A DNA stretch of 62,610 nt, the filler included, from Globobulimina sp. (lineage: Eukaryota), in assembly GCA_003354225.1 (NCBI GenBank). It is 31 parts of 31 records of this genome, joined end to end, with 100 filler letters (N's around TTAATTAATTAA, not from the genome) between each part and the next. Parts side by side here need not be neighbours in the genome. Positions count along the whole stretch, not along the records: positions 34,403 to 36,325 come from PIVH01010560.1; 30 more parts are not named here. One strand, 5' to 3'. How positions within the stretch are numbered: the stretch's first letter is position 1; each line of letters starts with the position of its first letter. A program made the translations under genes and the position numbers. Shown here piece after piece: positions 22,165 through 60,050 of this stretch. The notes under the pieces are model-generated. The model searched no databases, was not told the origin of the DNA, and saw nothing but the letters and a program-made list of their open reading frames with translations.

Positions 22165-22345
22165 NNNNNNNNNNNNNNNNNNNNNNNNNNNNNNNNNNNN
22201 NNNNNNNNTTAATTAATTAANNNNNNNNNNNNNNNNNNNNNNNNNNNNNNNNNNNNNNNNNNNNGGGTCAAAATACCAAGTAAACATCTATTAAATGACA
22301 AGTCTCTATTTTATGGAAACATACAAATAAACAATTAATATACAG

Positions 22346-24187
22346 AGGGTGTAGAAGGAACAGTTCGTTATGTTGGGAAAGTTACCTTTTCCACAGGAAC
22401 ACATTTAGGCGTTGAACTCGATGAATCAGGTACGTACATAACACCATACATCACTACCTAACCAGGTGCTTTTTATCCATTCATTTGAACCAATTCGATG
22501 AAAAGCACCACACCAAAGCACTACGCATCTATAATATATTACATACCATACCATACACAGCCGGCGATAACAATGGCAGAAAAAAGGTCCAATCCGCCAT
22601 ATATTAAACACACATTATATGAAACCAACAACCAATACATATCTGATACACACAAAAAGGGCAAAACCTATTTTAACTGCAAGCGAAAACACGGCGTCAT
22701 CGAGAAAACAGCCTATTTCACAGCAATTAAAAGCAGGAGATCCAGTAAACGCAAATCCATATCTTCGCGAAGCAAAAAAAGTGGCAAATCCTCCAAACCG
22801 CCAAGCAATCTCAGTGCCATTACAGACGACCCCGAAGAAAAAGAGAGCGGCAAAAAGAGCAAAAAAGGCAAAAAAGCGTCACCCATACCATCAGCGCCAA
22901 AGATAACCACTCAAACCAAAGCTATCCAAACCGAAGCACCAAAGGAGATGTTGGCTTATGTCGGTATGTCCAGTCCAATACACATCGCAAAATCGCAAAA
23001 ACACAGCACATGGCACTAACATATAGAGAGCGAATATTATTGCAAGATCATAACCCGTTTATACACGGAGGAGAATGAGAAATTACGCAAACAGCGCGAT
23101 GGCGCCATATCACAGACAATATCATTGCAGCAACGCACAGATGCGGCAGAAGCGCGTGCAAAACAGTTGGAATATGAGATCAAACAACAAAATGTAGAGT
23201 TGGATCCGTTGCGCGTCGACTTGGAGTTTAAGCAGGTTGAGATCGAAGAGTTGAACATCAAATTAGAGATTGCCAACATGGAGATTGAGGAATTGAATGA
23301 TAAGTTTGAAGAGTCGTTGGAACAGTATGTGAGGACTGTGGCTGACGACGATAAGCAGCACGCGGAGCTTGTTGCCATGAACGAAGAGTTGCAGCAACAG
23401 TTAACTATGTTGGTCAAAGTCGGACAAGAATTGTTTGACAGTAAGGACAAACATATTAATCGGCTGGCCACGGAGTCGGATTATGTGGATAGTTTATCTG
23501 CGAGGTATGTTGACGGAACACGTAGGGAAATATATTAATATAAGCCAAAGGGTGCCATGCTTGAAGTTACTGAGTCTTCACTGAAAAAAAAACGTTTGCG
23601 TGCATGGCAAAATCATGCTTCCCAGTCTGATAGACCTAAAAAATACTAATTTTATGTTAATAATGATAGATTGAAGGATTTGCTATCCGTAGAACAGGAA
23701 GTATTGGGCTTAAAGACCGAAGTCCACCAACTCCGCGACAAATGCGCAGTGTTGGAAGATGCCGACCGAATGTGTCAGACCTTAACAGAATACAACAACT
23801 CATTGGAAGGTGAGCTAACTGATTGGCGGGAATGGGTCCTTGACGTCGAAGCCGAGCGCACAATATTGGAAGAATTGCATGACAATGACGACCTACACAT
23901 AAACGAATTGATCAAAGAGAAGAAGGATTTAAATGTGCAATTATTTGAGTTGGATAAGGAAAATAAACAATTAACCATCGAAAAACATGATTTGCAAAAG
24001 GAAATCTTCGAATTACGCAATAAAATGGATCGACAGGACATCTCTGCGGCGAATCAGTTTCAAAAATATAATTTTGCCCCGACCAATGACAACGACTCCG
24101 GCAACGCTTCCAATCCAACCGATGACTATGCGGCAATCGACGCAGTTCCATCCAATCCGACTGACACCACAGACGGCGACACCACCG
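22346..24187 (+). CDS. CAP-Gly domain coiled-coil protein (multi-exon, partial)
   Basis: Exons 22346-22429, 22561-22586 and 22660 onward splice to GTVRYVGKVTFSTGTHLGVELDESAGDNNGRKKGKTYFNCKRKHGV; later exons are coiled coil. Confidence 0.85.
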
Positions 24188-25367: not shown

Positions 25368-26348
25368 TTTTTTACCTTGGCACATCTTAAATCATGCCAC
25401 CGCACGCTTTGCGGAAAGAAGAAGAAGGAGAGAGAGGACAGTATGGTTATATGATTATTTTTACGTTTATTTTATTATTATTTTATGGCAATGGAACAAT
25501 AATGGATTTACAAATAAAGGCAAATACCGTTAACTCATCAGGGACCTATTTCTATCTAACAAAAGCCCTTAGTGGCGGTAGATTAGGTATAACTTCTGCG
25601 TGGGGGTATTGCGATTGTGCTATCTGGATTGCTTCTTTTTTAAGGAGTCCTACTGGGAGTCGACCCCAGCTCAACCATTTTTATCTGGAGTGTGTTATCA
25701 CCTTTATTTTGTATTTACATTTTTTGTTTTATGGCTGTAATAGTTTTATGCGAATTTGCGTATTAGATTATTATATGAATCATGGACAAATTATTAAAGA
25801 ATTTATCTTAAATTTCTGTAAAATGTTTATATGCATTAGATTTTAAACCAACAAGCTTTTAATAGTTTTTAATTTTGAGTTTGAATGTGAGATCTCAGAA
25901 TCTCCTGGCCTAATAATGACAAATATTGCTTGCCTTTGACTCTGTTATAACATTGTTATTTAAGTGTGTCTGTATGCTGATTCGGTGCTTTTCCACAATT
26001 CCTATCCGCCGCTAGATCTCCTGACACATTTTCATGTTTATTTTCACTTTTCTGTTGTTGCATATTCATATTATCCACAATCATCTTGGTTATCGGATCA
26101 TTTTTATCACCATCATCCATGTCATGCTTTTGCTGTACATTATCAGGTTCGGGATAAATTAAAACAATGTCACCATCTTCATTAATAAACCACGAGTCTG
26201 TGTTTGCTATNNNNNNNNNNNNNNNNNNNNNNNNNNNNNNNNNNNNNNNNNNNNTTAATTAATTAANNNNNNNNNNNNNNNNNNNNNNNNNNNNNNNNNN
26301 NNNNNNNNNNTCAGTTTAATAGTCGCAATAGTATTACTCATTGTATTT

Positions 26349-26420
26349 GCGTCATTAGTTCAGTGGTTAGAATACGCCGTTGCCAACGGTGTGGCCCGGG
26401 TTCGATTCCCGGATGACGCA
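26349..26420 (+). tRNA. tRNA-Gly (GCC)
   Basis: Cloverleaf: acceptor GCGTCAT/ATGACGC, D arm GTTC/GAAT, anticodon arm CGCCG-TTGCCAA-CGGTG, T arm CCGGG-TTCGATT-CCCGG; no encoded CCA. Confidence 0.95.
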
Positions 26421-26435
26421 AACAATTATTATGCA

Positions 26436-26517
26436 GGCACTATGGCCGAGTGGTTAAGGCGTTAGATTAGAAATCTAATGGGTGTTACCCGCGTGAGTTC
26501 AAATCTCACTGGTGTCG
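26436..26517 (+). tRNA. tRNA-Ser (AGA)
   Basis: Acceptor GGCACTA/TGGTGTC, anticodon arm TTAGA-TTAGAAA-TCTAA, long variable arm, T arm GTGAG-TTCAAAT-CTCAC. Confidence 0.95.
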
Positions 26518-34302: not shown

Positions 34303-34404
34303 NNNNNNNNNNNNNNNNNNNNNNNNNNNNNNNNNNNNNNNNNNNNTTAATTAATTAANNNNNNNNNNNNNNNNNNNNNNNNNNNNNNNNNNNNNNNNNN
34401 NNTC

Positions 34405-34980
34405 CACCTGAATCTGTCGCAACAAGAGTCTCCGGTCCCCAGTGATCTTGAACTTAGCCTTCTCGACCAAGGAACGGGCCTTCCTGAACTACCGGTTGGC
34501 CATCTCGAAGTCGATCTAGAACAGCCATAAATGCCCATTCACATCACAACTTGCCAGACCCTTCTATAGTAGAGCTCGTAGGGAACCGTAGTCATCTAGG
34601 TGTTTCAGCTGCTGTTATGCTCGACAGGCTAGAATGTAGGCCTTTTCGTTGTCTTGGAAGAGACTCAGCAGCTGGGCGTGTTGACTCCAGACGGCGCTTT
34701 CGTCTTCTAGCTGGATTTCCAGAAGTAGAGACTGTTTGTACACCTTGAAGGAGGACTGGCACTTCTCGCGGGCCTGGGCCAGCACTTTCTGGGCTGCGAG
34801 CTGTTCTCCTTGGCTGGTCTTGAATTTGCTTATGGCTAGGTAGATGAGAGGACAGGACGGGTTCTACTCCAGAGCCTGGGTCAAGTACCGGTCTGCGATG
34901 AGTTGCTGGTCTTTGGACTATGCGTGTTTGGCCGCTGTGAGCCAGAGAGTCTCTCCTGTGGGATGCTGTCGTAGGGCCAT
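34405..34980 (-). CDS. PRP6: PRP6 (U5 snRNP HAT/TPR splicing factor) fragment read with TAA/TAG as sense codons
   Basis: Manual translation ALRQHPTGETLWLTAAKHA*...ALE*NPSCPLIYLAISKF...AQKVLAQAREKC...LL*KGLASC...LWLF*IDFEMANR*FRKARSLVEKAK follows PRP6 HAT repeats across six UAR codons, with no TGA. Confidence 0.8.
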
Positions 34981-34984
34981 CTTA

Positions 34985-35480
34985 GACATCGCCTTTGGTA
35001 CACCTCAATTCATCCAATTCTTCATTTATTTGTATTTGATCGCGTTTGGCATCGTGATAATGTTCGTAGAGGCGCCCACTTGGACATGTACGAGGTTCTT
35101 CCAGTTGCGCTTCTTTTTTTGGTTCAGATTGTTATCGCGAATGTGGGGCCGAGCCTGGTTTTACTTATTTGTGAGCATATTATGTTACGCCCCGGCCGGC
35201 TCTGAGGACAATAATGCGGTTTTCAGTGTGATTGCAGGTTCGTATTTGACCATTATCTCTATTTTGAGCTTCATATTCAGCCGGATGGCCGGCAAGAAAT
35301 TTGCGCGAATGCGGGAGTATATCGCCGCGGGCGCGGAAGGAGATGAGTTGGAGGGGCGGTTTATGCGGAAATTTGATGAGTTGGACTTGGGCGGCAAGCC
35401 TGGCACCATTGGCAGCAGCGAGGTGGTCAAGGCAGCGACGCAAGCGGGGCGAGTGGTGTCTAACTCTGAGAGACATGTAT
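34985..35480 (+). CDS. COPI-associated/TVP15-like membrane protein with EF-hand-like tail (partial)
   Basis: YLIAFGIVIMFVE...FRLLSRMWGRAWFYLFVS; FDELDLGGKPGTIG. Confidence 0.65.
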
Positions 35481-36579
35481 GTTTTGTGTGTGTTTCGCAG
35501 ATTCGCATCGCGCAAAATCGCATGTGATGTGTGTGGCGTTTTATATTTAGGCGATTCAAACCTTTTTGGATGAGAGTTGCAATGGACACGTAACTAAAGA
35601 AGATTGGATGAAACAGTTTGTGACACAATATCAAGAGAAAGGATTTAAGCAAAAGTTTTTATAAATTTTAGCATGATATGATCGATAATCTTTCAATTAT
35701 CACAGTTAGTAACTATTAAGGATAATTATTTGAATTTCAAGTTTGATGAATTTAGTAACTAATTATTAATTAATGTGGTTGTGTTATTGTCATAAAAACA
35801 CGTACAGCTTGTTTTTTTTGTTATTTATTTTTTTCTTGTCAATATTGTGCTAAATGCAAGACATGAGACATCATTTTTTTTTGTGGTTTAATTTTACTTT
35901 TTTGGTCTAAACTGAGTAAACTCTGAAGCAAAAGTAAAGTCCAATATTTAAATACGAACGGCTTTTGGCAGTAACTGAAAATTATTCAATGGCTCCGATA
36001 TATTTGAGCGTTGTTGTATTGATTCATTGTGTATTGGGTGAAGATTTTGCGTGGAAAAGTCATGTCGAAGTCCAATCATGGTAGAACACTGCTGCTGTAG
36101 AATTAAGCAAGTTTATGGAAGGAGAGCCTGGCATGGATGCAATTAAAGCATTGGCAAATGGGTGAAACTTGCCGATGATTTTGAGGAATATGTTGAAGAC
36201 CAAGCAATCATTGGAATCGAAACTTGGGCGCAATTTGCTGTGGGCTTACCACAATTAGCAACCTCTTGGGATTGTTACTTTGATGTTAATGTATTTCATG
36301 AACGCCATGCATCAGCTTCATTTTTNNNNNNNNNNNNNNNNNNNNNNNNNNNNNNNNNNNNNNNNNNNNTTAATTAATTAANNNNNNNNNNNNNNNNNNN
36401 NNNNNNNNNNNNNNNNNNNNNNNNNATCTTAATTTTTTTTTGACAAATATTTAGAACACCGTTTGAACTTTATTAAACAACTGGTTTTAATGTGGTTAAG
36501 CACGTTCTTGATGATTTTGATGGACGTTAAACAAAACAAAGAGTTAGGTTTGGTTTTAAATTGCAAGTCTTAATTTGCT

Positions 36580-38163: not shown

Positions 38164-38466
38164 GGTTGCTTGATATAAAATAATGTTGAGTGTATTTTTC
38201 AGTTGTTCAGCTAACTCCGTTTATCTCGTCATGTTCGGAAAACATTAACTGGGTCACAATGTTACAAAATGTAAACAGTTGAATGACCATGGCACTCCTG
38301 TCAGACCAAACGAAAGCAATCTGATATATACAACTGATTTCAATCTGNNNNNNNNNNNNNNNNNNNNNNNNNNNNNNNNNNNNNNNNNNNNTTAATTAAT
38401 TAANNNNNNNNNNNNNNNNNNNNNNNNNNNNNNNNNNNNNNNNNNNNAAGTGTTATGGTCGCCGGT

Positions 38467-39066
38467 TTACGCATGGTCAGTCAGAAAGGTATTCATTGAA
38501 TGTAACGAAATTGAAACATCTTTAGGATTTCTGGCGACATAAATCAATTTTGTGTCTGGATGAACATTTTGTATTTGTTCGAAACTTTGAGCTGTTCCAT
38601 GAAAGTGAGTAATTCTTTGAAATCCATCACTTGTTTGATTGTTCCATTTATGATATGCATCCATTCCAAGCCAACCACCATAAAATTCTATATTTGGCAT
38701 CTCCGACACCAAATTAATAGAATCAAATCGATGATGATCTCGTGTTGTTTTATTTTCCCTCAACATTTCCAAACATATTTTTTTGATCCAATGAGTTCCA
38801 GATTTCATAAAACTACAAACTATAATAAATTATAATTGTAGTTATTTGTATGATAATATATATACAATTAAAATTTGCAAACCTGTGATATCTTGATTTG
38901 TGATTTTATGATTTTCATTCATATAATTCATCCATTCCCCGCTATAAAATGGAAGATATGGTTTGCCATTAATTACATTGTGTGTTCCTCCAAATTCCGG
39001 ATGAAATTGATGTAATGGCCCATACACAGGGTTTCCTGTGATTTTGTGATTCCCCAATCGAAGCAT
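38467..39066 (-). CDS. Sulfotransferase (Sulfotransfer_1) N-terminal part; intron about 38813-38882, junction unresolved
   Basis: 5'-PSB MKSGTHW and 3'-PB LIYVARNPKDVSISL motifs. Confidence 0.8.
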
Positions 39067-39116
39067 GATAACTTGATGACTTATTGTTTTTTACTCAGAG
39101 TTAATTATTTTGCAGC

Positions 39117-40256
39117 ATGACTTTGCTAACAACATTGGACGAGGATATTCTTGATATATTAGGATCAGATATTGGCGATTCGCCCAAAACGTCTCTGTTG
39201 ACACCAAATCCATCCAAACTAAAAAACCAAACTATTCCCAGACAAACCATTGAATCTCAACATATTCTGAAAAATGCAGAAGCACTTCTTACAAAAGATA
39301 AAAACACTAAATCGGAAAAACAATTGCCAATGTTAATAAAACCCAAAACAAAACGAAGCAAGAAAATGTTGCACAGTCAATCAAATCGATCATTACCATC
39401 AACAGCAGCTAGTATGTCTGGACCAACTCCAATGAGCAGAGAAGAAGCATTATCATTATTACAATCAGAGTCAGCATTATCATCATCATTGTCACAACAA
39501 AATAAATTAAAACACAGTAATTCCGATAATAAGGATCCAGATATCGATGGTTCTGACGATTTTGATTTCCCAGATTCAATATCACCATCAAAAGATAAAA
39601 CCTATATGTCAGAAAACGAGAGTAATGACAGTATATTGGATTGGTTAGATGCACCTCGGGTAAACAAGCAAAATACGCGAAAACCATTGTTGCCAAAAAA
39701 AACAGCAAAGTCTCACTTAAAATCATCAACACCAACAAATGATGTCTTGGTAACTAAAAAAGAGCATAATGAGACAAAGCAATGCGAGGATAATAACACA
39801 AACAGTGTCGAACAATGGCAGGAATGGTTGGGATTGAGTCCAGATAAAGAAGAAGATAAAGAATTTGTATATTTGGCACAAAGTGCAGCAAAACGTGCAT
39901 TGCCAGTTGAATGGGAAAAAGTTAATGATAATTTATATCGAAATATTAGAACTAATGAGAAAACAATGAGTCATCCATTATTAAAAAATGTGCGAAATGA
40001 ATTGAAATTAGCCCGAAATAATAAAAAACAAAAACAGAAAGAAAAAGAAATTGAAAATGTGAATAAACATTCAAATACAAATACTTCTTTACGACAGATA
40101 GCAACACACATTCATTGTTCTACAAATAAAATGCAGGAAATTAAGATTTCAAATAATCAGAAAACAACGAAATTGATTACAGAAACAAACGAGAAAAAGT
40201 TTGAAACAGAGGAACAAAATAAAGAATTAAATGAAAATGTATATCAACAACAATAG
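39117..40256 (+). CDS. Disordered protein with CEP164-like WW region
   Basis: WLGLSPDKEEDKEFVYLAQSAAKRALPVEWEKV...YRNIRTNEKTMSHP resembles the CEP164 N-terminal module. Confidence 0.55.
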   Translation: MTLLTTLDEDILDILGSDIGDSPKTSLLTPNPSKLKNQTIPRQTIESQHILKNAEALLTKDKNTKSEKQLPMLIKPKTKRSKKMLHSQSNRSLPSTAASMSGPTPMSREEALSLLQSESALSSSLSQQNKLKHSNSDNKDPDIDGSDDFDFPDSISPSKDKTYMSENESNDSILDWLDAPRVNKQNTRKPLLPKKTAKSHLKSSTPTNDVLVTKKEHNETKQCEDNNTNSVEQWQEWLGLSPDKEEDKEFVYLAQSAAKRALPVEWEKVNDNLYRNIRTNEKTMSHPLLKNVRNELKLARNNKKQKQKEKEIENVNKHSNTNTSLRQIATHIHCSTNKMQEIKISNNQKTTKLITETNEKKFETEEQNKELNENVYQQQ

Positions 40257-40489
40257 ACCTTTGGAATTTATCCGGTCGAATTCGCCTTGAGTTCGAGTGC
40301 TTGAAACCTATGGTGGAGTGTATATGATCTCTAAAGGGGTTTGTATGCAAATATATTTCTCTACATCTANNNNNNNNNNNNNNNNNNNNNNNNNNNNNNN
40401 NNNNNNNNNNNNNTTAATTAATTAANNNNNNNNNNNNNNNNNNNNNNNNNNNNNNNNNNNNNNNNNNNNCTTTTTTATTTTTGTTTGTC

Positions 40490-42491: not shown

Positions 42492-43784
42492 AACAATATA
42501 ATTCCAATTTGCATCCATTCAATATCCAATGTTAAAATATATGCGTTTAATATGTATCCATTATTCCACAATATAGAATTTAATATAATCACAGATAACG
42601 TTTCACAAACTCCGCCTATTAAACATAACTTCACATTCGACACATACTGCGATAAAATGGGTATTGCGCACAAAGAAATAGTTTCAGCGCAAGCTTCGCA
42701 AATAGTGACATAAATGCCCAATTTGGCTGCATCTAAATCAAATAATGTTTGCAACCAAAAACCAAAACTTCCATAGTACATTCCCCAATTTGTGACGCAG
42801 GCCAATGTATTCAACATAATAATGACTAATATCATGTCACCAAACAAGACGCTGAGATCTGAAAATAATTTATTATTCCACCCACTATCAGCATGAACAT
42901 CCTCTGCGGGATTTCCATTTTGCAAAATATGTTCTAATTCAATGAAATCATCCTATATAAACAAACAAATTATATAAAACTTGCATATGCAATGCATTCA
43001 GTTAACATACCAATGAGATTGCCGGCATTCGATAAAATAGTAAAATAGTTACGACACTGTTAAAACAAGCAACCATTAACATTGTTTGTTTAAATCCATA
43101 CGCATCAATTAAAGGACCTGTGATTAGAAATAGTACAGTTGAAAAGGTCCAACTTCCCATGAATACAGTAGTTGCAGCATTTTTTCTCCATTTTTTGTCA
43201 CCTTCTATTTCCTGCATAAAGTGGAACCCGACCGAATTGCCTACAGTCCAAAAAATTTGCAACACCAAAGTGCGTGCAAACGACACTATGAATATATTGA
43301 ATACAGAGCCAGATAATAGAGAATTTATAATAGTACAAATCATTCCAAATATGTTCAAAAATAAACATAGATAATTGCATTTATATCCATTTAAGTATGG
43401 TATGATAAATATAGTGGGAAAGGCTGCTGTTGTTATCATTAATAAGCCACATGATAAATACTTAAAAGTTATATGATATTCGAAATCAATGAATGGAGTA
43501 AAAACAAACCATGATTTGAATATTCTGTATTAATTGTTTTATAATTACATCATGATTGTCATAGAAAATGAATGATAAATACTTATTACATACAATTGAT
43601 TGATTGTGCAAACAAATGTTATTATGATTACATCAAACCAAGAAATTGAATACTTGTTTATGAGGACTTGTTTGCTCGATTTGTGTTTGATATTTTTATG
43701 CAGGTTAAATAATGGTATTGTTTCAGAGTTTACTGATTGATTTGGTATTTGATGATGGTCCGATTGCAATGGTTGAGTTGACAT
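42492..43784 (-). CDS. MFS-like multi-TM transporter (multi-exon, 3' truncated)
   Basis: Three consecutive hydrophobic ORFs separated by short intron-like gaps. Confidence 0.6.
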
Positions 43785-44513
43785 TCTTGTATGTATTTGT
43801 ATTTGTCGGATAAAAACTGCGGTAAAAAAAGCAACAGCAAAGTAAATGTAAATTAAGCAATAATTGTGACTGTGACATATATGAAAGTAAAAGTAAGCAG
43901 AGAATAAAACAGATGGTTAAATGAAAGCAAACATATGATTATTTCAATATTGCTGCCTTTTTATTAATATTTGTTAATTCTGTTTCTAAATCATCATCAT
44001 CACTACCATTAAAATCACCAAATTTATCCATATCAATCATACCAAATTCAGCATCAATATCATCCTCAGTGTCAATCATTTGATACTGTTTTGCGTTTTG
44101 TTTACAAACCCACCTAAACCACCAAATAGTATAAATTAGTCCTAAAATGAAGTTAAACGAAGCCCAAATATTTATAAATAAATCATTATTCATTGAATTA
44201 TTAATTTTATTTAAAACATTTCTTTCTAAAATCTGATCGATATCACTTGTCATGATATAATTCGATGTAAATCGATAAACACAAATAACTAAATAACCAA
44301 AATAAAACAGCGATTGTGTATAAATACGTGTTGAGAGCCAAACATTAAATTTCTTTTTATCGAAAATTGATTTTATTAACGGGATAAATACAATAAAACC
44401 GTGTTTAATTAAANNNNNNNNNNNNNNNNNNNNNNNNNNNNNNNNNNNNNNNNNNNNTTAATTAATTAANNNNNNNNNNNNNNNNNNNNNNNNNNNNNNN
44501 NNNNNNNNNNNNN

Positions 44514-45230: not shown

Positions 45231-45358
45231 AAAAGAACTGCTCGTAAGTTTCCATGATTCAAACAAAAATTTAAAGACTTTGAGAGTTTTTTAGTTTTTC
45301 TTCAAGTATTTCACTAATTTACAGAAACGCTTTGTTGTTTGTTTGTATATCAACTTAG

Positions 45359-46435
45359 GAGTAACTTCGAAAGCAATATGGGCGGATCCAATGGCCCACG
45401 CAGACCCGACTACCACCAGAAATATTATACGAGATTTATTCAGAAAGAGACGAGTCACAACCAAATCAAACTATGTCTCAGTATTAAAGGATTGGTGGGG
45501 TTATTGTGTGGAACGTGGCAGAAACCCCTTCACAAAATATATTGATCCCAGAACGGCAATCTATTGGCAATATGATAGATGCTATAGATTAGGATCATGC
45601 AACTCACACACAACATGGTCATCTGCGTTATCTTGGTATACAAAAGCGTGTGGTGGCTCGCCAACATATTTAGATAATTTATTTTATCAGGATGTACATG
45701 AAACGATGCTTAAATTATATTTAAAACCTAGAGGCATAAGATTACCAATTCGGATTCGTTGGATTGTGAAATACTTACAATTAATTAATGTAACTCCGAA
45801 AACATGGGAAATTTGCCCAATTGACGATTTAACCAAAGCTTCGTTGATTTTGTTCTGTTTTTTCACGATAAGCAGACCAGCAGAACTACTGTATACAGAT
45901 AGCACCGAAAACGCTGAATGGGAAGTTATAACTACTGGTTTACGTTGGGGTGATATCACAGAACATAATTCGAACAAACCGTATGTGAGGAGATATTTAA
46001 AATTGATAATTAACTGGTATAAAAACCAAGAATTTAGGGATGTACCAAAGGAGATCTATATGGCACCACCAATATGCAACAATGTAAGAAATTGCCACTG
46101 CCGTTTCCTGGATTTCTTTGCTATATTTAAGATTTTATTGAGAAGACGACAGACTTTACATCGTCATTTATTACAGAAACAGAAATCAAAACAAAGGAAA
46201 CTTAAAAAGCAATTATTAACAAAACAACTACAAAATTTGAATACAAATAATTTCAATTATGTTTTTGTAGGATCAAATGGTGCGATTTGGCGTCCGTCGA
46301 AATTGACGCAATTCATGAAGGAATTCGTCAAATTACTTCAATTAAAAAAACCAAAAGCATTCCCACCGTATAGTATTCGCATAGGTGCTACATCCTTATG
46401 TAACCAACAAGGAATTGATTTATTGAAAGTCGGCT
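45359..46435 (+). mobile_element. DIRS/Ngaro tyrosine recombinase (3' truncated)
   Basis: FTISRPAELL (catalytic R), WYKN (K), YSIRIGATS; lies directly downstream of the RNase H. Confidence 0.9.
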
Positions 46436-50579: not shown

Positions 50580-51033
50580 TTTATATAAATGTGTTGAAAA
50601 TTGTTTCCCGCAGTTACTACAAATCGCTTTGCATTCGTGTTGGGGAATAGGTCGTATGTCAACATCATTTAATTCAAGTGCGCTGAAACGAATTGCATCA
50701 TTTTCATCTCGCCATTCAACTTGGACCATTGGGAAATCCGTAGCCCGAACAGGCGATACAATCGTTTTGATTTCTGCAATATACCATTTTCTATTACCAG
50801 GTGAACATATTTCTACATAATTACCCTCTCTCCATTTATGACGATCAAATTTCTCATTCTTATTTCGAATATTTGGTTTTATTATGTCTTTTGGTCTCTC
50901 GTTTTCACAAATTTCACATTTTGGTAATGCTGTATGGTTATTAAACGTGCAGACAGGACACATCCAAGGCTCACTGCGTACAATGCCTTTTTCGTTTTGT
51001 TTTGGTTGCTGTTTACTAAGTTTGTTTGCCATT
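50580..51033 (-). CDS. RanBP2-ZnF plus Tudor/MBT-like domain protein (partial)
   Basis: WMCPVCTFNNHTALPKCEICENERP; WREGNYVEIC...KWYIAEI. Confidence 0.65.
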
Positions 51034-51083
51034 ATAAGTTGCACCGCTTCGTAGTCTCTAGCTAGTAGTTTGACACTCAAATA

Positions 51084-51767
51084 ATGTCATTGACTAAACA
51101 AGAATTAGATTGTGTAGAACAAAGGTTTATTGACATTGTTTTCGGTTTCGCCAGAAAAATACAACACTCATTTTCATACAAAATAATAATTCCATCGGAA
51201 ATAATTTATCTTTGTTTATCATATTATTATTTCAAATATAATGGAAAATTTGTTTTAAAATACGCAACCGATGACATTAAAATTGTTTCCCCAACAAAAA
51301 TTGAATTAAAAAGCAGGGGATCAGCTCGATTGGATGCACCATTGCCATCTGGCAGAGAAACATCATGGAAAATAAAATTCCTTGATTCAGTAAATGGATT
51401 TAATGGAAATGGACTGTTTTACAGTGTTCATTTTTTTTATGGTGTAGTATCTCAAAAATGTAACAATTTCAAAAAAACTGCATATGATGGATTGACAGAT
51501 GCATTTGGCATCAGTGGGTTTACGAAGCCACATATGTTTAAAGGAAATGGATATCATCAATATGACAGCAAACAGAAGAAAATCAATGTTCAGTTTCAGG
51601 ATATTATGGAAATGAAATATAATTCATTTAAATCAGAATTAGTATTTCTTAAAAATGCTGAGGAAATATATAGGATTATGTTGCCAACCATTGATAACGA
51701 TATTGCATGGTATCCAACTGTTTCATGGCAATCAAATGCAAAAGTTTGTGAGGTGTTCTATGACTAA
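51084..51767 (+). CDS. SPRY/B30.2-like protein
   Basis: IPSEIIYLCLSYY N-terminus; WKIKF...FFYGVV...DIMEMKYN...LVFLKN...WYPTVS. Confidence 0.6.
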   Translation: MSLTKQELDCVEQRFIDIVFGFARKIQHSFSYKIIIPSEIIYLCLSYYYFKYNGKFVLKYATDDIKIVSPTKIELKSRGSARLDAPLPSGRETSWKIKFLDSVNGFNGNGLFYSVHFFYGVVSQKCNNFKKTAYDGLTDAFGISGFTKPHMFKGNGYHQYDSKQKKINVQFQDIMEMKYNSFKSELVFLKNAEEIYRIMLPTIDNDIAWYPTVSWQSNAKVCEVFYD

Positions 51768-51993
51768 GCTAGCGGAATATCGCCAGTCACTTTCATGTCA
51801 ACATAACTGCAATTCGATCACTGTACGGACTTTTTAATCTGTGCAGTCATAAAAGTGCCGTTTGTTCGGTGCGACGAACTCACCAACACTACGACGCAAA
51901 AAGTGCAAGTCTATGTTCTCATTTTTGATTCTGAGCAAATTAACTCAATATATATTTATTTAGTAATATTACAAAAAATAAACAGCACATAAT

Positions 51994-52501
51994 TTAACCA
52001 GTTATTTTTAATATGGTGGTTGTGCACATTATACAATTTCCTTTCTGTTTTGGTTGGTCATATAACTTCAATACAGCAGTAGCTGTGCCATCGGGAGCTT
52101 TTTTCGCAATAAAACTTGTCATCACTACATCCATTGGACCAATGGCAACTGGACATTTGATTCCATTATAAATTAATGTGCCATCATTAAGCGGGAAATT
52201 ATAAACATACGGAACACATCCATCCTATATTAATGTAATAATATATTATACGATAATTCGCATTACGCAAAATCGCACATAAAGATATATATAAAAACCC
52301 AGACCTCTGTAATATGTGCATTTACAAACACTCCATCTTGAATTGTTAGGTCAAAACTTGGATCAACAATGACTTCAAATGAAAACCCCGATCCTGTAAT
52401 GGTAAACTATTTTTTTTGATACATATATATATATGATAATGTTATTTATTGTACAAATGCAATTTACATACATTTTGTCCAACGGGTGGCGGATTTGGTA
52501 C
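51994..52501 (-). CDS. ML/NPC2-like lipid-binding protein (multi-exon; not in ORF track)
   Basis: Manual translation PNPPPVGQN...PVAIGPMDVVMTSFIAKKAPDGTATAVLKLYDQPKQKGNCIMCT. Confidence 0.55.
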
Positions 52502-58758: not shown

Positions 58759-59996
58759 TTAGGGCCGCTCGCAAAGCATTCGCCCATACCGCGGGGTATG
58801 ACTCTGCAATAGTCGATTTTTTACATTGAGGTCATTATGAGAGGGACCATGAATAATATCTCGGACCATATGACTTAAACATATGGCATCTGGTCGGACA
58901 TATCGCATACTAATATCTGGTAATTTGGAGTCACTCCAACCTACATACTTCAAAATAAGTCCGTGAGCAATACCAACCTGCGAGGCTCGTGTAGTGCCGC
59001 CAATTCTTGAGCTATATGAGGAATATCGTTTAGGCTCGAGAATATATGTCTTATTGGCAGCAAGGACTTCTTTTATGATTTTAGCGAGATAGGTGGTGTT
59101 CACAACTTTGCCACTAGACCAAACCAATACATTGTTTTCCGCAGTAAGTCGTAAATTGTGTTTACGTATTTTATCATGGCACCCGAGAGTTAACAAGAGT
59201 TGTTTCCTTCTTTTTAGGTATACTCGCAATAATATTAATGGATTGAGTAACTTGCAAGGGCAGGAATGATTGGATAACAATGTTTTATCACAATAAGAAT
59301 TGCCTACATATAGGAGCTTAGAATCGCGTAACGATTTCATGGATTTATGCGAAACAATCTGAATACGAACAAAGTGTGTGGATGGTTTGCGTGGATTGGG
59401 TTTCATAAACGTAATGTGTTTGAATTTGATGCCTCTTTTGGTTTTAGAATAAGTGGAGAGTAATAACTCCGATGGCCTGGACATTGTGAAAAAGTATAAC
59501 TGGATAATAAGCACTTTTAACAATGTATCCAATGGAATGGTATAATATTTATCGATGACACAATTGGATTGAAGGGTATATCGGATTAAATGACTCATTT
59601 TTAGGGGCAATCTCGAATCAGATGGTTTATCAAATCGCTTCAATGCTGCGGATTTAAACCGATTATATTCGTTGTTATAATTAAAAACAGAGTCAATATC
59701 CGCGGCCTGATGTAACCAAAGGAGCATGGATTGTGACTGGCGAATACAATTTGTGTTATTTGCCTGTTGAATACGGTCAGCGATCCAAAATAGCGCTAAG
59801 GAGGCATTAGTAGGGAGTTCAAAGGGATTCTCTTTTAATGTAACACAATAAAACACCCAATTTCTTAATTGGGAAATGTATTGGACTTTGGTGCCGATAC
59901 ATTTATCTAATAAGTTAGTTTCGACAATGAAATCAGCAGTCTTTGGTTTTTTCTTAGCGAGGGAGTGAGTTCGCTCAAAACGTTTTCGATACCATT
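58759..59996 (-). mobile_element. DIRS/Ngaro tyrosine recombinase with all catalytic positions present
   Basis: MSRPSELL (R), SHKS (K), YSSRIGG, YVGWS (W), SMRYVR (Y); frame open up to 59997. Confidence 0.9.
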
Positions 59997-60050
59997 CTTA
60001 AATTAAAACAAAAACAATGGCAAGTTTAAAGAGACAACATATAAATGGAA

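Follow-up and report, generated by a model that had tools for sequence, protein, structure and literature searches.

PRP6 (PRPF6, Prp1), a HAT-repeat protein associated with the U5 snRNP, forms the bridge between U5 and U4/U6 in the U4/U6.U5 tri-snRNP of the spliceosome, and the domain that defines it is the N-terminal PRP1_N (PF06424). In the ciliate, dasycladacean and Hexamita nuclear code (NCBI table 6), UAA and UAG specify glutamine, which is by far the commonest reassignment; in the Mesodinium code UAR means tyrosine, and in the peritrich code glutamate. Inverted chimeras are known from multiple displacement amplification, and chimeric contigs from the amplification or assembly of mixed samples. 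As to other stop-codon meanings, sections of PMC11687900 describe UAG as leucine or glutamine in phyllopharyngean ciliates, some of them from ocean metagenomes, and UAA as the preferred stop in UAG-only codes. A section of PMC6394959 describes one Amoebophrya in which all three stops are read as sense, part of PMC10553269 describes one ciliate in which UAA and UAG differ in meaning, and parts of PMC10553269 and PMC4967479 indicate that other stop-codon meanings exist in marine alveolates.

The stretch of DNA analysed here (the window, 62,610 nucleotides in all) contains one contig with a stop-interrupted frame that resembles PRP6. We hold with considerable confidence that this is a foreign piece of PRP6, that its donor was most likely a ciliate in which UAA and UAG encode an amino acid, probably glutamine, and that a chimera joined it to the sequence beside it.

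A scan of the whole window found 30 spacers that split it into 31 pieces, arranged in descending size from 1924 to 1921 bases; the spacer between pieces consists of N44, the 12-base six-frame stop TTAATTAATTAA and another N44. Rather than a single molecule, the window consists of short contigs that are unrelated to one another. As it represents 31 separate contigs, features that run across spacers and arguments from neighbourhood between pieces are meaningless. Three of the spacers are as follows:

1925-2024: artificial spacer, joining two pieces
34303-34402: artificial spacer between two unrelated contigs, just below the PRP6 fragment
36326-36425: artificial spacer, closing the contig with the PRP6 fragment

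The contig at 34403-36325 carries the PRP6 fragment and has the highest GC content of the 31 (0.438; the other 30 range from 0.237 to 0.426). The preliminary description of this DNA had noted a GC-richer segment, and 150-base windows bore this out, with values of 0.49-0.56 over 34403-35002 as compared to 0.24-0.43 in the other 30 contigs. At third codon positions, GC (GC3) was 0.66 in the fragment, as compared to 0.32 pooled over 8929 codons of long ORFs from the other contigs. The neighbouring membrane-protein exon is also GC3-rich (0.63), and one other contig reaches 0.62, so that composition alone is no proof of foreign origin. The contig at 32380-34302 has by far the lowest GC in the window (0.237), with a GC3 of 0.14-0.16 in its long ORFs, and its longest ORF had no Pfam match; it may represent a further source, an organelle or another element.

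Sixteen public runs matched the contig at 34403-36325, and four of them (X1, X2, X3 and X6) were compared by their contigs; the small shares in X7-X15 play no part in this comparison. X1 and X2 are from organism A and belong to one study, and X3 is from organism B and belongs to another. X6 is a marine metatranscriptome run from a third study, separate from those of X1-X3; it is an RNA library that can contain DNA, and transcription of the PRP6 fragment is not proven by it. The fragment itself is described as follows:

34403..34968, minus strand: PRP6 gene fragment, 566 bases, 188 codons of a HAT-repeat array (from translation, phmmer against PDB, library matches and X6), corresponding to about residues 603-781 of human PRPF6, and truncated at 34403, where the contig ends, and at 34968, where the chimeric junction lies

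Searching solved structures (PDB) with phmmer returned human PRPF6 as the top matches (E 2.2e-15 and 4e-15), and the alignment at E 4e-15 is a single colinear stretch that pairs query positions 5-195 with PRPF6 residues 595-781, in keeping with the HAT-repeat array of the C-terminal two thirds of PRP6. The next-ranked HAT proteins were far weaker, with E 9.5e-8 for a Suf-domain protein and 1e-3 to 7e-3 for CRNKL1, and the fragment is nearer to PRP6 than to the other HAT-repeat splicing and 3'-end factors (CRNKL1/Clf1, SYF1, CstF77/Suf and PRP39). A library of 1.84 billion representative proteins yielded 185 matches at E<=1e-3 and 21 at E<=1e-10, the best having E 6.1e-18 and 30% identity. These proteins are mostly about 900 residues long and align at about residues 550-800; 104 of them align over at least 150 of the 200 query positions. 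Identity was at most 31% to each of the best 150 full-length or long matches in this library, and the best local identity, 43%, was to a 68-residue fragment rich in asparagine and lysine (P0099). PRP1_N was present in all seven tested top matches of at least 887 residues and absent from two shorter ones; P0099 gave no family. Pfam matches on the fragment itself were of generic TPR/HAT type. Judged by these matches, the fragment is PRP6, though a very divergent one. The proposal that a PRP6 fragment lies hidden here was thus upheld, the matches to PRPF6 at E 4e-15 and to the best library protein at 6.1e-18 being well outside the range of chance. Its extent, first put at 34405-34980, had to be redrawn: the donor part is 34403-34968, and codons 1-12 of the open frame (34969-35004) are antisense to the neighbouring gene. 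The N-terminus is missing from the contig because the chimeric junction swaps the upstream sequence for that of the partner.

When TGA is taken as the sole stop, the minus-strand frame from 35004 is open for 200 codons. Among the 188 codons of the fragment, TAG occurs five times and TAA once, whereas TGA and frameshifts are absent, in agreement with the earlier statement that about 190 codons are free of both. The other five frames of 34403-34968 contain 2 to 8 TGA in four cases and none in one. All six UAR codons lie where they had been reported, the positions given then being the low coordinate of each codon (counts below are for the 104 library homologues):

34918..34920, minus strand: in-frame TAG, codon 29; family column Trp 77/104; within X6 record 25
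34864..34866, minus strand: in-frame TAG, codon 47; family column Ala 41/104; within X6 record 25
34615..34617, minus strand: in-frame TAA, codon 130; family column Glu 20/104, Tyr 14/104; the same in X6 record 22
34564..34566, minus strand: in-frame TAG, codon 147; family column Glu 15, Gln 13 and Ser 12 of 104; the same in X6 record 22
34516..34518, minus strand: in-frame TAG, codon 163; family column Ala 44, Leu 23 and Tyr 13 of 104; TAC (Tyr) in X6
34489..34491, minus strand: in-frame TAG, codon 172; family column Asn 17, Gly 17, Lys 11 and Gln 9 of 104; the same in X6 record 22

The alignment with the 104 homologues crosses all six codons free of gaps, with homologue residues opposite each, and the preference for TAG over TAA (5:1) parallels that for CAG over CAA (14:4). 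The sequence evidence supports the view, put forward in the preliminary description, that UAA and UAG are read as sense in the donor of the fragment, since the alignment is colinear through these codons, TGA and frameshifts are absent, and at least three of the six codons are unchanged in a contig of the marine RNA library that is about 97% identical.

That contig comes from X6, which covers only 34403-34961 of the contig at 34403-36325. Record 22 of X6 is an 858-base contig that lies on 34403-34813 with 13 differences and extends 447 bases past the contig end at 34403. Codons 29 and 47 fall in record 25, whose 147 bases contain a single difference of unlisted position. Three UAR codons are therefore confirmed in X6 (130, 147 and 172), two are probable (29 and 47) and one is TAC (163). 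Ten codons differ between the two copies: two changes are synonymous, seven are replacements and one is the TAG/TAC change. At codon 154, X6 has proline, as do 65 of the 104 homologues, and the window has aspartate; at codon 188, X6 again has proline, as do 46 of the 104, and the window has threonine. Twelve of the 13 differences lie within the terminal 150 bases of the window contig (34403-34552), and at most differing positions there X6 has G on the plus strand; this end of the contig may be a diverged variant or an error-carrying, lower-quality assembly end. Because the X6 copy suits the conserved columns of the family better than the window copy does, it seems that selection acts on the reading frame in the lineage of the donor.

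These comparisons bear on the possibility that the fragment is a dead PRP6 pseudogene, of the donor or of the main organism, in which the six stops are real lesions. The varied residues opposite the stops in human PRPF6 (W, A, E, N, L and Q) would suit such decay, as would the strong divergence (at most 31% identity to full-length PRP6 among the best 150 matches), the lack of an N-terminal part in the contig and the poorer fit of the window copy at the two conserved prolines. However, a decaying gene would have to have gathered six UAR codons in 188 with neither a TGA nor a frameshift beside them, the missing N-terminus is accounted for by the chimeric junction, and the GC3 of the fragment together with its parallel CAG and TAG bias points to a maintained coding frame. 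At least three of the six stops are unchanged in the RNA-library copy from another study, which differs elsewhere and matches conserved residues. A second copy that keeps the frame and the stops, and that fits the family better, argues for a working gene with sense UAR rather than a decaying pseudogene, and we regard the pseudogene as very improbable. If UAR is sense, it might nevertheless stand for a residue other than glutamine, whether tyrosine, glutamate, split meanings of UAA and UAG, or a context-dependent code with no dedicated stop. We derived a profile from these 104 homologues, entering the six UAR codons of the query as X, and read out its emissions. Summed over the six columns, the log-odds were 3.1 bits for Gln, 2.8 for Ala, 2.4 for His, 1.8 for Lys, 0.3 for Glu, -0.8 for Tyr and -4.0 for Leu. 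At ordinary codons the true residue averages about 1 bit, so that about 6 bits would be expected of the right answer over six, and because true residues give only about 1 bit per position, six codons are too few to decide the residue. Glutamine occurs in 3, 4, 5, 13, 2 and 9 of the 104 homologues at the six columns, which thus fail to single it out. Tyrosine draws some further support from codon 163, which is TAC in the related RNA contig and where 13 of the 104 homologues have Tyr, from column 130 (Tyr in 14 of 104) and from the aromatic column 29 (Trp in 77 of 104); several meanings of UAG or UAR are also described in marine alveolates in sections of PMC11687900, PMC6394959 and PMC10553269. 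In the profile, however, Tyr lies 3.9 bits and Leu 7.1 bits below Gln. Replacements outnumber synonymous codons by 7 to 2 between the two copies, so that TAG and TAC need not be synonymous, and a change from Gln to Tyr is a single third-position change if UAR means Gln. The prevalence of UAR=Gln among reassignments also weighs against another residue, which we consider unlikely. Codes in which UAG alone is reassigned to Leu or Gln, as in Phyllopharyngea, were rejected, as TAA is also in frame beside TAG and both are kept in the RNA contig. Glutamine remains our best guess, mainly on prior knowledge, as it stands at the top of the profile, if barely ahead, as TAG and CAG share a G-ending bias, and as it is the commonest reassignment. 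The earlier wording, probably Gln, stands insofar as Gln leads the profile at 3.1 bits; with Ala (2.8) and His (2.4) close behind, the sequence does not show Gln. In the reported match of ALE*NP to AFQANP, the stop stands opposite Ala in human PRPF6, and the sole codon that faces Gln is 172.

A related reading would have the donor be an undescribed marine lineage, possibly outside the ciliates, in which UAR means a residue other than Gln or two different meanings. Tyrosine in such a lineage would fit the TAG/TAC variant and the aromatic columns 29, 130 and 163, and an identity of at most 31% over the length of PRP6 (best 150 matches) would fit gene callers that break genes at in-frame stops. 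We hold this reading to be quite unlikely. On prior grounds, the likeliest donor would be a marine ciliate. That the fragment comes from a second eukaryote, a co-sampled marine protist, is supported, since the Pfam-supported ORFs of the other contigs close with all three standard stops. In the other 30 contigs, whose DNA is about 33% GC, ORFs run up to 581 codons under the standard code, and reading through UAR lengthens them little. Pfam families were found at E<=1e-5 in 12 of the 30 longest ORFs, including cullin, protein kinase, BEACH/WD40, ubiquitin hydrolase, PPR, replication factor A and GCN1 HEAT repeats. There are 23 ORFs of at least 250 codons, 7 of which run off their contig; the 16 that end inside do so at TGA (10), TAA (5) or TAG (1), although intron borders may account for some of these ends. 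All three standard stops are in use in the main organism. The assertion that host genes end in TAA or TAG was thus mistaken, 10 of the 16 ending in TGA, but its conclusion, a standard host code, holds. The claim of a second organism was sustained by the standard-code ORFs elsewhere; the runs with the neighbouring gene also show no cover of the PRP6 part, a point that is weak alone.

Four further contigs (22265-24187, 38448-40369, 42492-44413 and 50580-52501) are opened by a TGA-only stop and were tried as carriers of a second donor fragment, and were rejected, as homology did not continue through UAR in any of them; what they gain in length comes from flanking or antisense sequence or, probably, from introns that stay in frame. 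On the plus strand of the contig at 22265-24187 (GC 0.417), a 566-codon coiled-coil frame from 22489 is broken only by three TAA, which, judged by eye, look like short in-frame introns rather than sense codons. Two long ORFs on separate contigs, 45295-46434 (plus strand) and 58762-59997 (minus strand), share 27% identity over 350 residues (E 1e-32), and neither matched a Pfam family at E<=1e-5. A repeated or mobile element present in more than one copy is a possible source of both, and they gave the impression of putative tyrosine recombinases. A pair of tRNA genes lies on one main-organism contig:

26348-26517, plus strand: tRNA-Gly(GCC) and tRNA-Ser(AGA), 14 bases apart

These two were the only tRNAs found, and no donor tRNA, rRNA, gene end or release factor (eRF1) was present within the window. 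The marine RNA runs that contain the fragment are X6-X9, and the donor protist is present in several marine RNA libraries. A word-indexed protein search gave seven candidates among shorter proteins, none at E<=1e-3, and one match among longer proteins, a fungal PRP1_N protein at 29% identity, with no close relative. The 99 pattern matches in JGI metagenome contigs came down to one locus (L001) and no relative. This locus was rejected, being a bacterial contig of 51.6% GC with a TPR protein that merely has the motif TQALEQNP; full-length PRP6 gave no tblastn match on it, and its ORFs, by eye, are PspA-like, GGDEF-like and radical-SAM-like.

The sequence adjoining the fragment was resolved into a junction and part of a second gene:

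34962..34968, no strand: chimeric junction; the donor RNA contig ends at 34961 and main-organism contigs begin at 34969
34969..35476, plus strand: exon of a multi-pass membrane protein, its 5' part cut off by the junction (Pfam; X1, X2 and X3)
35477..35550, plus strand: GT..AG intron of 74 bases (GTATGT...TTTAG) (spliced contig in X2, loose ends in X3)
35551..35664, plus strand: last exon of the membrane-protein gene, with a TAA stop at 35662-35664 (translation)

The membrane protein matched COPI_assoc at E 4.3e-6 with 27.3 bits, below the curated cut-off of 30, and may bear a weak resemblance to a COPI-associated protein. Its spliced joint (35476/35551) is present in one X2 contig at a depth of 364, with matching loose ends in X3, and the intron contains a TGA (35528-35530) that is the apparent end of the ORF. 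As the intron is spliced out in the X2 contig, at least some of the organism A and B runs contain cDNA; the 74-base GT..AG example also indicates that the main organism has short canonical introns.

Within this contig, the contigs of X1, X2 and X3 cover only 34969-36325, and they extend before 34969/34977 with sequence that is mutually identical and unlike the window. X1-X3 had no cover of 34403-34922 and X6 had none of 34988-36325, missing contig cover being weak evidence alone; X1, the best-covering run, had no PRP6 part. Among the contigs shown for X1, X2, X3 and X6, none crosses 34962-34968. The join of the PRP6 fragment to the membrane-protein gene is supported as a chimera, an artefact, because independent data contain its two sides separately, with the sequences parting at a single point; the argument is carried by the loose ends and the pieces that are present, rather than by missing cover. 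The step that produced the chimera may have been amplification, library making or assembly. A fusion near 34985 had been described, and the fusion itself stands, with its position moved to 34962-34968; that the join is chimeric was also supported, as contigs of three runs leave the window sequence exactly at the junction. For the join to be real, prey or symbiont DNA would have to be integrated beside the membrane-protein gene in the main organism or in the cell line that was sampled. Both parts do lie on one assembled contig, and no run from the source sample was shown to contradict it. Against this, the contigs of three runs, which bear two organism labels and belong to two studies, share an upstream sequence unlike that of the window, and a real join would leave an expressed, spliced gene without its 5' part; integration is extremely doubtful.

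Under the preferred reading, a foreign fragment joined by chimera, suppressor tRNAs of the donor would decode the six UAR codons, with UGA alone serving as the stop. The piece would owe its head-to-head join with the 5'-truncated membrane-protein gene, at 34962-34968, to a chimera formed in amplification, library making or assembly, and would do nothing in this assembly. It is a contamination marker and is not to be annotated as a gene or pseudogene of the main organism or as a horizontal transfer. It also serves as a flag on the quality of the assembly, whose record strings together short contigs of a mixed sample and includes at least one chimera. At the same time, the fragment offers a small handle on a marine protist with reassigned stops and with no close relative in the protein collections searched, and organisms of this kind are systematically missed by gene calling under the standard code. 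As the type of code has long been known, the biological surprise is small unless the UAR residue differs from Gln.

Compared with known systems, the fragment has in common with PRP6 the LWL motif, the AR..L..AR spacing and the Trp residues at codons 21 and 160. In contrast to full PRP6, it represents about one fifth of the protein, from about residue 603, so that the PRP1_N region lies outside it, and it differs from the PRP6 family in its six UAR codons. The join resembles amplification and assembly chimeras in being head-to-head, with unrelated sides that are each found separately and never together; unlike in such chimeras, the two sides here are from different organisms. Like the marine alveolate reassignments, the fragment combines a marine setting with stops inside a conserved gene, and its TAG/TAC variant would fit the tyrosine of Mesodinium, whereas its profile scores disfavour both Tyr, as in Mesodinium, and Leu, as in Phyllopharyngea. 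With NCBI table 6 it shares UAA and UAG in frame inside a conserved gene, the absence of in-frame UGA, and a G-ending bias common to TAG and CAG.
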